13,501 nt of DNA from the UHGV virus genome UHGV-1805255, one strand, 5' to 3'. Within the stretch, counting starts at the first letter, position 1; the number at the start of each line of letters is the position of its first letter. This stretch comes from a virus. Below are positions 9,541-13,501 of the stretch, in pieces. The notes under the pieces are model-generated. The model made no database searches. It saw nothing but the letters and a program-made list of their open reading frames with translations, and was not told the origin of the DNA. The position numbers and the translations under genes were made by a program.

Positions 9541-10060
9541 TCAGCAACCCCGGTATCAGTTCATCCAGCGCGGCTGCTTTGTTCATGGCTTTGATAATAT
9601 CCCGTTTCAGGAAATCAATATGCCGGTTATCCAGCTCAGGAAAACGTCGCTGCACCGACAGAGGAATACCGTCGAGAATACTGGATATTTCCCTTGCTAT
9701 ACGCGACAGCACGAAAGTACAGAATGCGGTTTCCACCACTTCAGCCGATTCTTTGGCATTTTTCAGTTCCTGCGCCGTCGCCTGAGCACGAGTCAGGCGA
9801 TGGCGCTCAAATTCAAGTGTTCCGGGGTGAAGATCTGCCTCGCTGGCCAGCCGCAGTTCTTCAACCTCCCGGCGCAGCTTTTCGTTCTCAATTTCAGCAT
9901 CCCTTTCGGCATACCATTTTATGACGGCGGCAGAATCATAAAGCACCTCATTACCCTTACCACCACCCCGCAGAACGGGCATTCCCTGCTCCTGCCAGTT
10001 CTGAATGGTACGGATACTCGCGCCGAAAATGTCAGCCAGCTGCTTTTTGTTGACTTCCAT
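9515..10060 (-). CDS. Nu1: Terminase small subunit Nu1
   Basis: 181-aa ORF (MEVNKKQLADIFGASIRTIQNWQEQGMPVLRGGGKGNEVLYD...) matching lambda gpNu1, with the N-terminal winged-HTH region. ATG at 10060, directly downstream of cosB. Confidence 0.97.
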
Positions 10061-10084
10061 TGTTCATTCCACGGACAAAAACAG

Positions 10085-10199
10085 AGAAAGGAAACGACAG
10101 GGGCCAAAAAGCCCGTTTTCAGCACCTGTCGTTTCCTTTCTTTTCAGGGGGTATTTTAAATAAAAACATTAAGTTACGGCGAAGAAGAACGGAAACGCC
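10085..10199. promoter_or_regulatory. cosB: terminase (Nu1) binding R-elements R1, R2, R3
   Basis: A perfect 17-bp inverted pair, agaaaggaaacgacagg (10085-10101) and cctgtcgtttcctttct (10125-10141), plus a third related element gaacggaaacgcc (10187-10199). These match the lambda CGTTTCC-type R sites between cosN and Nu1. Confidence 0.85.
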
Positions 10200-10237
10200 T
10201 TAAACCGGAAAATTTTCATAAATAGCGAAAACCCGCG

Positions 10238-10249
10238 AGGTCGCCGCCC
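10238..10249. other. cosN: 12-nt cohesive-end sequence (GGGCGGCGACCT on the minus strand)
   Basis: Plus strand aggtcgccgccc at 10238-10249 is the reverse complement of the lambda cohesive end. The 49 nt on the Nu1 side are identical to the lambda left end as I recall it. Confidence 0.9.
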
Positions 10250-10310
10250 CGTAACGGCCCGGATCGCCGGAAAGGACCCGTAAAAATGATAATGGTTATC
10301 ATTTTCAATG

Positions 10311-10498
10311 TAGTCCGGTTTCTTCCACCATCGCACCGGACAGGCGACTATGAGGGGACAACGCCGCGCTCCGTTAACGCGGTAAACCCCGGTGTGTATC
10401 GTTTTTGATTATCCCCGCACACTCGCGCAGAGGAGTCTCCCTGTCGGGCTGCGGTCTCTGTTAATGAGGGAATACAGCGACGATACGGCGCATGATGT
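10311..10498. repeat. Copy 1 of a ~190-bp imperfect direct repeat (cos-proximal copy)
   Basis: By-eye alignment with 12086-12285: ttcttccacc...cagg...atgagggaca...gcggtaaa...ccggtgtg.atcgtttttgattat..ccgcacactcgcgcagaggagt...gtcgggct.cggtc...gttaatg.gg.aatac.gcgacgat. Roughly 85-90% identity over the core. Confidence 0.8.
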
Positions 10499-10524
10499 GT
10501 CAGGCTTGAATACATTTATCCGTT

Positions 10525-10550
10525 AAAAGGGATATCAGTTAAGTTATCCC
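10525..10550 (-). terminator. Weak terminator-like hairpin 3' of cargo gene B
   Basis: The mRNA reads GGGAUA-ACUUAACUGA-UAUCCC followed by UUUUAACGG. The 6-bp stem is AU-rich and the U-tract short, so this is a weak call. Confidence 0.25.
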
Positions 10551-10607
10551 GTGTAGGGTATAAGCCATTATCAAAGCCACTCAGTAGCGAATGGCTTTTG
10601 TAATGGA

Positions 10608-11057
10608 CTATTTAATTAGTGATGCTGCGTATTCGATTAGATATAACTTAGGTGCCAACCAGATTTTTAACCATGTCATATTGGTTACTACAGCAATAAT
10701 AAAACTTACCCACAGAACAAAAACTGCTGCTAATGGTAAGATAAGAAAACTAATCTCACCGTTACTTTCCCAAATCATGGTCGGTTTGTATTTAGGCTTC
10801 CCTTTTTCCCATGACCATCCTTCATTATCGAACTTACCAATTTCAACTTTTTGGTACTGTTTCTTCATAAACCAAATAACCAGCGGGATTGTTGAAATGG
10901 CTATTAATGTTTTAATCAGGCTATCAACCATATTCCATACCAGCAACTGATGAACAACATCCGGAATCTGAGCCTGACTGAATGCAATGGCGGAATCAAT
11001 TCCATCGCTGGCCTTCTTCAATAAATCAACAAGAATTTTATTTGCTTCTTCTTGCAT
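10608..11057 (-). CDS. Cargo gene B: small (149 aa) predicted two-pass membrane protein, function unknown
   Basis: ATG at 11057 preceded by AGGA at about 7 nt; the track ORF begins upstream at a TTG. Two hydrophobic segments (SLIKTLIAISTIPLVIWFM and ISFLILPLAAVFVLWVSFIIAVVT) flank a Lys-rich loop. About 37% GC in a sampled stretch. No homolog recognised. Confidence 0.7.
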   Translation of the reverse strand: MQEEANKILVDLLKKASDGIDSAIAFSQAQIPDVVHQLLVWNMVDSLIKTLIAISTIPLVIWFMKKQYQKVEIGKFDNEGWSWEKGKPKYKPTMIWESNGEISFLILPLAAVFVLWVSFIIAVVTNMTWLKIWLAPKLYLIEYAASLIK

Positions 11058-11181
11058 GTTTATATCCTGTAAGTTGTAAGCCTGTTCGAGAAAAATAAAC
11101 AACTACGAGAGACAGAAAAAAATATCTCAGGCTCTCTTTCTATAAGCTTTTAGTTGAGGATGTTCTGCAAAACAAAACTGG

Positions 11182-12042
11182 TTAGTTATGTAACTGCTTC
11201 CGGAATACAACAGCCGACGAGCTACAACGTAAAATTCGTTTGATTGTGGCAGTTGAGGAAACAGACTTGCATTTCTCAACATCATCAATAATGACCACAT
11301 CCGGTACAGGAATGACGCGGGTATGCAATGTTTTTGCACTAATAACATCACAGCCATTCAGTGGTCGAATATCTGCATCTTCAGGCACTACCAGAAGCAC
11401 ACGTTTTTCCGGTGCAGAAAAGCCAGCAGCAAGAGTGCGTGACAATAAAGTCATTCCGCTGCGTGGCTTCATACAAATTTCAGAAATATGATTCTTTTCG
11501 TCCAAATGATGCTGGACATCATTTTTATCATCACTCAACAACTCTGCTGTTAATACAATCCCTGCTGTCTCAGATTTCCAGGAAATGCTGATATCCTGAT
11601 CATCTGCATCAACATCATATTTCATCGAGTAAGGACTAAAGCTACGTCCAACGAACGCATCATTTACCAGTACACGCCCACCCTGTCTGACCTGAAAGTC
11701 AACGCGCCCGGAAAGCTGATTTGCTGTTACAAGCAATGCCTTTTTTCTTTTTGTTTTATTGCTCATTGCCACCAACTGTTCAGCCATCTCTCTTGTCACA
11801 CTACCAGAAACTCTTCCTTGCATTTTCACAGAAAATTTTCTGGATGTAGTAGCATCGACATTAAAAAATCTGGATGTAATCAGGCAGTTATTAACAATTG
11901 GCATCAGCTCACTTACGATTGTAAAAAATTCCCGGTAAAGCTCATTTTGCTTTTCAACACACAGCTTTCCACAATCGTCCAGCTTACGCTCAAGAGCACT
12001 TAACCTTTCCATTATTGAATTAATTTTTTGCAACTCTTTCAT
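11182..12042 (-). CDS. Cargo gene A: 286-aa protein of unknown function, predicted soluble, N-terminal coiled-coil-like segment
   Basis: ATG at 12042 preceded by AGGAGG at 5 nt (MKELQKINSIMERLSALERKLDD...). The track ORF extends to a TTG at 12303 through the GC-rich repeat, with an R/C/S/P-rich translation that I do not consider coding. About 38% GC in sampled stretches. TAA stop at 11182. Confidence 0.75.
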   Translation of the reverse strand: MKELQKINSIMERLSALERKLDDCGKLCVEKQNELYREFFTIVSELMPIVNNCLITSRFFNVDATTSRKFSVKMQGRVSGSVTREMAEQLVAMSNKTKRKKALLVTANQLSGRVDFQVRQGGRVLVNDAFVGRSFSPYSMKYDVDADDQDISISWKSETAGIVLTAELLSDDKNDVQHHLDEKNHISEICMKPRSGMTLLSRTLAAGFSAPEKRVLLVVPEDADIRPLNGCDVISAKTLHTRVIPVPDVVIIDDVEKCKSVSSTATIKRILRCSSSAVVFRKQLHN

Positions 12043-12065
12043 CAAAACCTCCTGACAAAGATACC

Positions 12066-12083
12066 GTGCGACCACGGTCGCAC
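12066..12083. promoter_or_regulatory. Palindrome gtgcgacc-ac-ggtcgcac (copy 1), candidate operator / protein-binding site upstream of cargo gene A
   Basis: Perfect 8-bp inverted arms around a 2-bp centre, 24-41 bp upstream of the gene A ATG and directly abutting repeat copy 2. Confidence 0.5.
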
Positions 12084-12085
12084 GC

Positions 12086-12285
12086 TCCTGAATACATGCC
12101 CTGTTTCTTCCACCCTCGCACAGGACTGGCGAGCATGAGGGACAAACCCGCGAATCATTAGTGCGGTAAAAACCCGGTGTGCATCGTTTTTGATTATTTC
12201 CGCACACTCGCGCAGAGGAGTTCCCCGTCGGGCTACGGTCATGGTTAATGCGGAAATACGGCGACGATGCAGCGCGGTATTTAAT
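12086..12285. repeat. Copy 2 of the ~190-bp imperfect direct repeat (upstream of the cargo cassette)
   Basis: Aligns with 10311-10498 (see copy 1). It is bracketed on both sides by the 16-18-bp palindrome. Confidence 0.8.
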
Positions 12286-12302
12286 GTGCGACCACGGTCG
12301 CA
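12286..12302. promoter_or_regulatory. Palindrome tgcgacc-ac-ggtcgca (copy 2)
   Basis: Same core as 12066-12083 with 7-bp perfect arms. Centre-to-centre spacing is 220 bp, about 21 helical turns. Confidence 0.5.
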
Positions 12303-12322
12303 AACGAGAAACAAAGAGATTT

Positions 12323-12634
12323 TTATGCTACAGAGGAACAAGCTGGCGGGTAATTCAGCGTAGTGAATACCGGCATCTCCATCTTGTATGCGTAATGATA
12401 CTCAGCAGTTGCTCCAGCAGACGCTTTCCAGCCAGGAAGCATCAAAATAGCATCAGCACAACGAAGCATTGCAAAGCAAATATCCATGTATTCACGTTGT
12501 GTCAAACCATTAGGCAAAGTGGCTGGATTCAAGACAGAGTGACCATGTCGTGACAAACGATCTGCCTCTTTATTAAAGGCGTCACGATTAAAGTTCTCAT
12601 ATCCCGTCATTGGCCCGGCAATATAAATTTTCAT
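12323..12634 (-). CDS. DUF4406 / nucleoside 2-deoxyribosyltransferase-like small protein
   Basis: 103-aa ORF with ATG at 12634 (MKIYIAGPMTGYENFNRDAF...LMLPGWKASAGATAEYHYAYKMEMPVF). The N-terminal IYIAGPxTG and the LPGW-x-S-x-GA-x-x-E motifs fit my recollection of the DUF4406 family. Family assignment is from memory. Confidence 0.6.
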   Translation of the reverse strand: MKIYIAGPMTGYENFNRDAFNKEADRLSRHGHSVLNPATLPNGLTQREYMDICFAMLRCADAILMLPGWKASAGATAEYHYAYKMEMPVFTTLNYPPACSSVA

Positions 12635-12675
12635 TCACTATCCAACAAATTGAGCTCGTTTTTGATACAGAGGGA

Positions 12676-13113
12676 TTAATTCAGGCATTGCGTCTTGATG
12701 TATTCCTGCAAGTAGTTAACCTGCGCAGTTATCCTGTCGATCCCACTTCGGAGACGGTAATAATTGAGTTCAGCATCTGCTGTAAGTCTTGGGCTTTCTC
12801 CATCGCCCATGCTGCTGGCTCCGGTCGTTGACTTTGCACAGGTGGCGGCGACTTGCAGGCGCTTACGCCCAGCAGAAACATCAGCACGGAGGCTTTCGAT
12901 AGTCGCGTTAGCATCAGCAAGCTCCTTTGTATATCTGGCATCGAGTTCTGCTACGTCACGTTGACGCTTCTGCATATCAGCGATTGTGGATGTGGCTTTA
13001 TCGCGCTGCTCTTTGTAGGAGATGGCGTTATCACGGTAATGATTAACCGCCCATGACAGGCAGACGATGATGCAGATAACCAGAGCGGAGATAATCGCGG
13101 TTAACCGACTCAT
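12676..13113 (-). CDS. Rz: i-spanin Rz (inner-membrane spanin subunit)
   Basis: ORF 12676..13149 matches lambda-type Rz from the ATG at 13113 ([34 protein letters not shown]...). N-terminal TM segment, coiled-coil-rich periplasmic part, and an embedded Rz1 frame. Confidence 0.9.
12729..12914 (-). CDS. Rz1: o-spanin Rz1 (outer-membrane lipoprotein, embedded in Rz in +1 frame)
   Basis: Embedded ORF with ATG at 12914: [36 protein letters not shown]... Signal peptide with lipobox-like VSAC followed by a Pro-rich segment, as in lambda Rz1. An alternative upstream ATG at 12941 is possible. Confidence 0.75.
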
Positions 13114-13205
13114 GACATCAACACCCCAACGGCCAGAAACCACGGCCACGCATCGTTGCCATTAAATGCGAGCAACGCTGCCATGAAAAAGAAAATCATG
13201 CTCAT
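13110..13205 (-). CDS. Putative 31-aa hydrophobic micro-protein between R and Rz
   Basis: Hand translation gives [31 protein letters not shown]. Its ATG overlaps the R stop (ATGA) and its TGA overlaps the Rz ATG (ATGA). No RBS is evident, and it is below the size cutoff of the ORF track. Confidence 0.35.
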
Positions 13206-13501
13206 TGCTGCCCCCACAAACAGACTTCACGCTCAATCTCACGACGAGTCATCAGGCCTTTCCATTGCTTACCGCCAGCAGATATCCAGCGACGTAGCTG
13301 ATCACATGCGCCTTTGATATCGCCCTGGTTTATTTTGCGAAGAAGCGTCGATGTTCTGAAATTACCAGCGCCCACGTTGTAAACGAACGAGTAAAGAGCG
13401 CCGCGCGTTGTTTCCGGGGCACTGTTGCAAAGTTAGCGATGAGGCAGCCTTTTGTCTTATTCAAAGGCCTTACATTTCAAAAACTCTGCTTACCAGGCGC
13501 A
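13202..13501 (-). CDS. R: Phage-21-type (T4-lysozyme-like, GH24) endolysin R, C-terminal 99 codons; 5' end lies beyond the window
   Basis: Hand translation of the minus strand gives ...[71 protein letters not shown], matching the C-terminus of the phage 21 R / RrrD-type lysozyme as I recall it. TGA stop at 13202-13204. Not in the ORF track because it has no start in the window. Confidence 0.85.

Follow-up and report, generated by a model that had tools for sequence, protein, structure and literature searches.

Two palindromes between the lysis genes and cos of a lambda/N15-type siphophage match the SopB/ParB centromere site of N15-group phage-plasmids

Two short palindromes, P1 and P2, lie between the lysis genes and cos in a 13,501-nucleotide stretch of UHGV virus genome UHGV-1805255 (hereafter the window), and they are very probably two copies of the centromere-like (parS-type) site for the SopB/ParB protein of the N15 group of linear phage-plasmids. 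As a sequence match, the identification of the motif as a SopB centromere site is secure. Binding of SopB to P1 and P2, and a part for both sites in the partition of the window's own replicon, would follow from that identity; the latter would need cognate sopAB, whether on that replicon or elsewhere in the cell, and no sopA/sopB, telN or repA was found in the 13.5-kb window. The presence of two copies is best explained by a homologous crossover between two phage types within a lambdoid non-coding block, here called R.

Results

The window covers the part of a lambda/N15-type siphophage genome nearest to cos, and the late genes lie on its minus strand. Its terminal 84 bases (13418-13501) are the end of an IS26 element inserted in the lysozyme gene; this segment, annotated as IS26 family transposase, matches over 5,000 plasmid records with at least 99% identity, and with 100% identity among the matches listed. 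Because the element interrupts the lysozyme gene, the phage is probably lysis-defective. Reading along the late strand, Rz (13149-12676, minus) is followed by a DUF4406 (nucleoside 2-deoxyribosyltransferase-like) gene (12323-12634, minus; Pfam E = 3.7e-34), by P2, by one copy of the conserved R block (R2, 12100-12275) and by P1. Downstream of P1 is a two-gene cassette comprising gene A (11182-12042, minus; 286 aa, phrog_2571) and gene B (11057-10608, minus; 149 aa, phrog_3054). A second copy of the block (R1, about 10315-10491), which has no SopB site in the window, adjoins cos (about 10160-10262), and beyond cos lie nu1 (10060-9515, minus), the large terminase subunit gene and the portal gene.

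Searches of Pfam, PADLOC and NCBIfam gave nothing for gene A or gene B, which fall only in PHROG families of unknown function, so that the cassette says nothing about the site. A reading of the gene B translation suggests membrane-spanning segments. The cassette fills the moron slot between the lysis genes and cos and is present in both phage-plasmids and integrated prophages; in YDC107_1, a deletion has removed gene B and the end of gene A. The same region holds two further inverted repeats. One, at 10283-10305 between cos and R1, is perfect and AT-rich (AAAATGATAA-TGG-TTATCATTTT) and stands where some relatives (Type I, below) carry a SopB palindrome. The other, at 10085-10141 between cos and nu1, has 26-nt arms and gave a spurious miRNA match that was the only one of our Rfam scan; we take it to be the gpNu1-binding R elements of lambda cosB.

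P1 (12066-12083) is an 18-bp perfect palindrome, GTGCGACCACGGTCGCAC, with a 16-bp core at 12067-12082 and a dyad that can be extended to 20 bp (12065-12084). P2 (12287-12302) is a 16-bp perfect palindrome, TGCGACCACGGTCGCA, and this sequence occurs exactly at both 12067-12082 and 12287-12302, with no third copy in the window. Searching the 13.5 kb with the query TGCGACCNNGGTCGCA and tolerating up to two mismatches yielded P1 and P2 alone. By chance, 0.05 occurrences would be expected in the window against the two found, and none of 200 shuffles gave two. Both sites have the purine-pyrimidine centre A-C. The earlier note on this DNA, made from the sequence alone, had described a two-copy palindrome with an identical core, separated by 220 bp, located upstream of gene A and absent around the first repeat copy. 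All of this is borne out: the matches are exact at both places, the starts of the two palindromes are exactly 220 bp apart, P1 stops 23 nt short of the gene A start codon (ATG at 12042, minus strand), and the motif is absent around R1 within the window at two mismatches or fewer. P2 lies 20 nt downstream of the DUF4406 stop codon. Two details needed correction. The coordinates given for P1 were right, but P2 had been started one base early, at 12286, a g that is not matched by the a at 12303. The palindromes do flank R2, but they do not bracket it quite as exactly as had been written, since the homology between R1 and R2 runs from about 12100 to 12275 and therefore leaves P1 16 nt and P2 11 nt outside its limits.

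The sequence TGCGACC-NN-GGTCGCA, which both palindromes match exactly over 16 bp, is the core shared by the published N15 IR1-IR4 oligonucleotides, IR4 being tcgTGCGACCACGGTCGCAcgc (PMC7205306). P1 is identical to the IR4 oligonucleotide, a likeness that extends over 18-20 bp (cgTGCGACCACGGTCGCAcg), as well as to three of the four partition sites annotated in phiKO2. For the N15 IR sites, specific SopB binding and SopAB-dependent stabilisation or incompatibility have been reported, and N15 SopB foci form on a "4xIR" centromere array assembled from IR oligonucleotides (PMC7205306). When we scanned the N15 genome, the motif matched at exactly four positions, those of the published IR1-IR4 centromere sites: 33480, in repA; 35931, after a Q-like gene; 41125, immediately ahead of the late promoter; and 45562, in the gap separating genes 58 and 59. 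At the first of these (IR1, 33480-33495), the genome reads AGCGACC... where the published oligonucleotide has TGCGACC.... The GenBank record of phiKO2 (NC_005857) annotates four 18-bp "putative plasmid partitioning sites", each consisting of GTGCGACCACGGTCGCA followed by C or T. The earlier note had predicted a site for a dimeric regulator, and the match to the N15/phiKO2 SopB centromere upholds a site for a dimeric helix-turn-helix protein while replacing the identity and the purpose that had been proposed for that protein.

The palindromes also resemble the sites of F sopC. The F site is likewise a 16-bp inverted repeat with an A-C centre, to which a SopB dimer binds with one helix-turn-helix per arm, nucleating the partition complex (PMC3177203, PMC2910045). 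It differs in sequence, being TGGGACCACGGTCCCA (TGGGACC-AC-GGTCCCA), so that the third arm base is G where P1 and P2 have C (PMC3177203). It differs also in layout, with 12 tandem 43-bp repeats beside sopB, 10 of them SopB-binding, whereas the window has two copies 220 bp apart. The N15 and F SopB sites are one nucleotide apart per half-site, and the specificity determinant of N15 SopB has been placed in residues 179-200 (PMC2910045); F SopB is non-functional with N15 sites (PMC7205306). We rejected membership of the F-type sopC class on the third arm base, C instead of G, and on the lack of 43-bp tandem repeats.

The surroundings of the sites agree as well. Homologues of the DUF4406 gene precede the matching SopB site in both N15 and phiKO2, and the window protein shares 84-85% amino-acid identity with N15 gp57 and phiKO2 gp58 (85% with the latter). 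The fourth phiKO2 site (48618-48635) begins 17 nt after gp58, itself DUF4406-like, much as P2 begins 20 nt after its DUF4406 gene, which makes P2 the equivalent of IR4 in position. N15 IR4 occupies the same interval between the lysis/DUF4406 genes and cos as P1 and P2, and in N15, too, the sites are dispersed and do not lie beside sopAB. N15 differs in having a single site in this interval, located after an extra cytosine-methylase gene, whereas the window has two sites 220 bp apart on either side of R; the R block is absent from N15, and the 13.5-kb window has no sopAB. phiKO2 differs in its HK97-type head genes, its four sites and its lack of both the R block and the gene A cassette.

The closest relatives, pG749_3 and PhiR46_1, are N15-like replicons. 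The best match to the whole window is pG749_3 (96.7% identity), in which sopA is accompanied by genes for a ParB-family partition protein, a protelomerase and a CyRepA1 replication protein. The other, PhiR46_1, has telL/telR ends and ParA/ParB, its ParB being 74% identical to N15 SopB with a near-identical helix-turn-helix segment. For both, ParB matches NF010252, a plasmid-partition equivalog of NCBIfam. Each of these two genomes has five exact sites: three at the IR1, IR2 and IR3 positions, of which one is in repA, one follows the Q gene and one precedes the late region, and the pair spaced by 220 bp. For the 4-kb region around the sites, 46-48-kb plasmids from E. coli, E. albertii and E. 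fergusonii account for the top match (97.9%) and for the majority of the closest ones. Over the whole window, plasmid and chromosomal relatives are about equally similar (96.6-96.7% identity).

Alternatively, P1 and P2 could be SopB sites by descent that now sit in an integrated lambdoid prophage, or in some other replicon without cognate SopB, where they would be idle and simply carried along with a recombined lysis-cos module. An identical two-palindrome module does occur in a lambdoid prophage integrated at dusA, which has an integrase and neither sopAB nor any further site. Other prophage loci hold single copies of the palindrome, and the stretches fetched around these showed no plasmid gene of the N15 type. 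Of the E. coli records with the P2-DUF4406 junction, about 8 to 21 are chromosomes; a decayed P2 allele exists and is mostly chromosomal; and the window phage is already defective through IS26 in its lysozyme gene. Against this, both copies in the window are perfect, and its closest matches around the sites are predominantly the 46-48-kb plasmids, N15-like phage-plasmids included. We consider such an idle state conceivable, but somewhat unlikely.

Conservation of the sites points in the same direction as their identity. In the plasmid copies of an alignment retrieved by flanking sequence, the sites are perfect despite differing adjacent bases, and P2 is intact in plasmid relatives with diverged flanks, so that the SopB site forms an island of perfect identity between diverged or unrelated sequences. 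Two chromosomal copies of this alignment carry the decayed P2 allele AGCGACCACGATCGCA. In complete E. coli genomes this was the sole decayed P2 allele seen, being found in 10 chromosomes, for example L172 (NZ_CP065613.1) and L173 (NZ_CP011416.1), and one plasmid, against an intact allele in about 15 plasmids and 8 chromosomes (Fisher p = 0.003), a contrast that probably reflects one mutational lineage; as the decay events are probably not independent, it is only suggestive of selection. By analogy with F SopB, and if arm positions are counted inwards from the outer end, one of the allele's two changes in AGCGACCACGATCGCA would fall where the base matters for binding and the second where substitutions are tolerated (PMC3177203). 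Chromosomal variants with a 1-nt insertion between P1 and P2 also occur.

The pairing of the sites is bound up with the history of R. R1 and R2 are 83% identical and 1785 bp apart, and R is a widespread lambdoid block, with 424 phage records and 3,181 of 5,426 E. coli genomes containing it. In HK629/lambda it holds a predicted promoter and is located upstream of bor; in lambda-like phages and in the relative L130 it lies upstream of bor/iss. No palindrome adjoins R in the copies that we inspected from sequenced phages such as lambda, 434 and 3W. In N15 and phiKO2 the site is present, and R, gene A and gene B are absent. Since these two phages carry the site without either, the palindrome is not a property of R or of gene A. 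The relatives of the window show four main arrangements, the window's own included. In Type I the order is cos-PAL-R-...-Rz (PAL denoting a palindrome); in Type II, which is that of L086 and has no cassette, it is cos-R-PAL-DUF4406-Rz; and in the L130 type it is cos-R1-geneB-geneA-PAL-R-iss/bor-Rz. Some relatives thus have a copy of the palindrome between cos and the repeat equivalent to R1. When these sequences are aligned, those of Type I match P1 and the left part of R2 without a difference, and L086 does so for the right part of R2 together with P2 and DUF4406. L130 shares the geneA-PAL-R order, and its R is 98% identical to R2. It follows from the left/right mosaic of R2 that one crossover inside R, between an L130-type and an L086-type phage, would give the order in the window, with one site contributed by each parent. 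Judged from these alignments, the window looks like such a single-crossover recombinant.

Identical copies flanking a 176-bp repeated block could also be read as scars, either the target-site duplication or ends left by insertion of a mobile R2, or copies of a dispersed host repeat of the REP or MITE kind. The earlier note had raised the first of these readings, in the form of junctions of an inserted segment, together with a comparison to cassette-free relatives, and the cassette-free L086 does retain exactly one palindrome, P2, beside its single R. Breakpoints do lie at the palindrome edges, but a target-site duplication does not agree with the relatives, and a crossover within R fits best. 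R is found in hundreds of phage records and more than 3,000 E. coli genomes, with the inspected copies of lambda, 434 and 3W free of the palindrome; there are phages with the palindrome only to the left or only to the right of R, and the window R2 is a mosaic of both types; and the palindrome is present without R in N15 and phiKO2. As far as sequence can show, the architectures of the relatives and the R2 mosaic rule out a target-site duplication or a mobile R element. As for a dispersed repeat, the 18-mer is rare in a scan of one genome for each of 185,579 species, occurring in 37 stretches against about 17 expected by chance. It was multi-copy solely on a 46-kb Pseudocitrobacter contig, nearly all other occurrences were single, and it was never multi-copy on a chromosome. 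A REP/BIME/MITE-like element, with its tens to hundreds of copies per chromosome, was not seen in these genomes, and the motif is not the generic host repeat that the earlier note had considered as grounds for dismissing it. The Rfam scan (10000-13501, E <= 1) gave no match to the palindromes. Taken together, scars of either kind have almost no probability in our view.

The viral distribution of the motif is consistent with a partition site of N15-type phages. A scan of viral contigs placed the 16-mer in at least 120 stretches, often several per contig and with many different flanks. Among 162 motif instances in the viral loci fetched, 96 adjoin homologues of N15 RepA, Q, gp51, DUF4406/methylase or Nu1, and 50 of the remaining 66 fall in two contexts beside an HK97-type capsid gene. 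BLAST against phages and plasmids showed these two contexts to be those of Klebsiella phiKO2-like telomere phages, with matches also in 171 Klebsiella/Citrobacter plasmids, about 52-72 kb in size among the matches listed; 167 of the 171 are non-mobilizable. In 565 kb around sopB homologues, there were eight exact sites and a single near-match with two mismatches.

Many of the Klebsiella phiKO2-like telomere phages carry an extra exact SopB site just after the major capsid gene or within the next gene (for example, L008 near 7221 and L034 near 4072, as well as Klebsiella plasmids), a position that is siteless in phiKO2 itself. The number and placement of SopB sites thus vary within this family.

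The position of P1, 23 nt upstream of the gene A start codon, had led to a different reading in the earlier note, in which the pair form an operator. A dimeric regulator, supplied by the host or encoded by gene A itself, would there control gene A by cooperative binding or looping over 21 helical turns. A perfect dyad is of the type bound by helix-turn-helix dimers, and silencing of flanking genes by ParB is known, so that a side effect on gene A is conceivable; Rodionov et al. reportedly described such silencing in 1999 (cited in PMC5016525). However, the identical motif is present in N15 and phiKO2 in the absence of gene A, gene B and R, and it also lies inside the repA coding sequence and at unrelated loci. 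No sigma-70-like promoter was predicted on the minus strand between 12042 and 12330, and the gene A product has no recognisable DNA-binding domain, both of which count against local control. Nor does the 220-bp distance lend independent support to helical phasing, because it is inherited with a near-identical module (99% identity) in every relative and is not independently conserved. We rejected the gene A operator on the occurrence of the site without gene A and on the lack of a promoter, and local regulation of this kind is very unlikely to be what the palindromes are for.

A role in RNA is another reading, in which the palindromes would fold into hairpins in the transcript or act as intrinsic terminators, punctuating the late operon and insulating the cassette. 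In a loose scan, P1 on the minus strand looked terminator-like, with an 8-bp stem and a 4-nt loop followed by GTATCTTTGT, and the N15 record annotates IR4 in this way, over a stretch that folds at z = -2.6. Yet the fold at P1 has a z-score of only -1.4 with a poor T-tract, and P2 has no T-tract and its hairpin is missing from the predicted minimum-energy fold (z = -0.1). Conservation is in sequence and not in compensatory changes, sites also lie inside coding regions, and phiKO2 and the Klebsiella phages have separate, proper terminators beside the site. Only P1 qualifies, and weakly, and a terminator function is very unlikely.

Discussion

P1 and P2 are best read as N15-type SopB sites, and the steps by which they would act can be drawn from established work on the F and N15 Sop systems. 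A SopB dimer would bind each 16-bp inverted repeat through its helix-turn-helix, and the bound sites would seed a larger SopB-DNA partition complex. The SopA ATPase would then act on this complex, so that the low-copy plasmid prophage reaches both daughter cells. In the N15 group, such sites are scattered round the genome and not clustered. Within this scheme, P2 would be the ancestral site at the IR4 position, directly after the DUF4406 gene, and P1 would have arrived with the lineage of the gene A/gene B cassette. A single homologous crossover inside R would then have joined the two, giving a local two-site cluster and, in the close relatives, five sites per genome.

Chromosomal and P1 plasmid-type parS are likewise short palindromic nucleation sites, from which a ParB-family protein spreads and can silence neighbouring genes. 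They differ from the window palindromes in sequence and specificity; P1 plasmid-type parS is a composite with an IHF site, and chromosomal parS sites cluster near the replication origin. Putative spreading or silencing by SopB that affects gene A is possible.

A further idea is that SopB sites serve as portable module boundaries. Together with R, they could act as short-homology crossover points at which morons such as gene A/gene B are shuffled between N15-type phage-plasmids and integrative lambdoid prophages, and a pair that flanks a promoter-bearing R and abuts gene A might also impose SopB-dependent silencing or insulation in the plasmid state. The sites could serve in crossover because they are 16-20-bp islands of perfect identity in a variable region. 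The homology breakpoints coincide with the palindrome edges, and one site is found joined to several unrelated left and right flanks, a pattern that is suggestive only. We regard this idea as unlikely.

As SopB sites, P1 and P2 are an ordinary, already described element, with a minor novelty in the second copy 220 bp away, acquired through recombination. Knowledge of this motif in N15 and phiKO2, of the protein that binds it and of its scattered copies dates from about 1999-2004, the phiKO2 "putative plasmid partitioning sites" reportedly going back to Casjens et al. in 2004, and the value of the finding as a discovery is correspondingly small. Its use is in annotation, where the motif marks a module as coming from, or exchanged with, N15-type phage-plasmids and cautions against operator or terminator labels. 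The RefSeq record of N15 (L123) offers a case in point, labelling IR4 (45560-45584) a "putative rho-independent terminator" and not a partition site. The analysis also documents an E. coli lineage with five sites instead of four. Finally, it shows that centromere sites also reach integrated lambdoid prophages and that at least one allele has decayed there, providing a small natural experiment on the selection that acts on partition sites.
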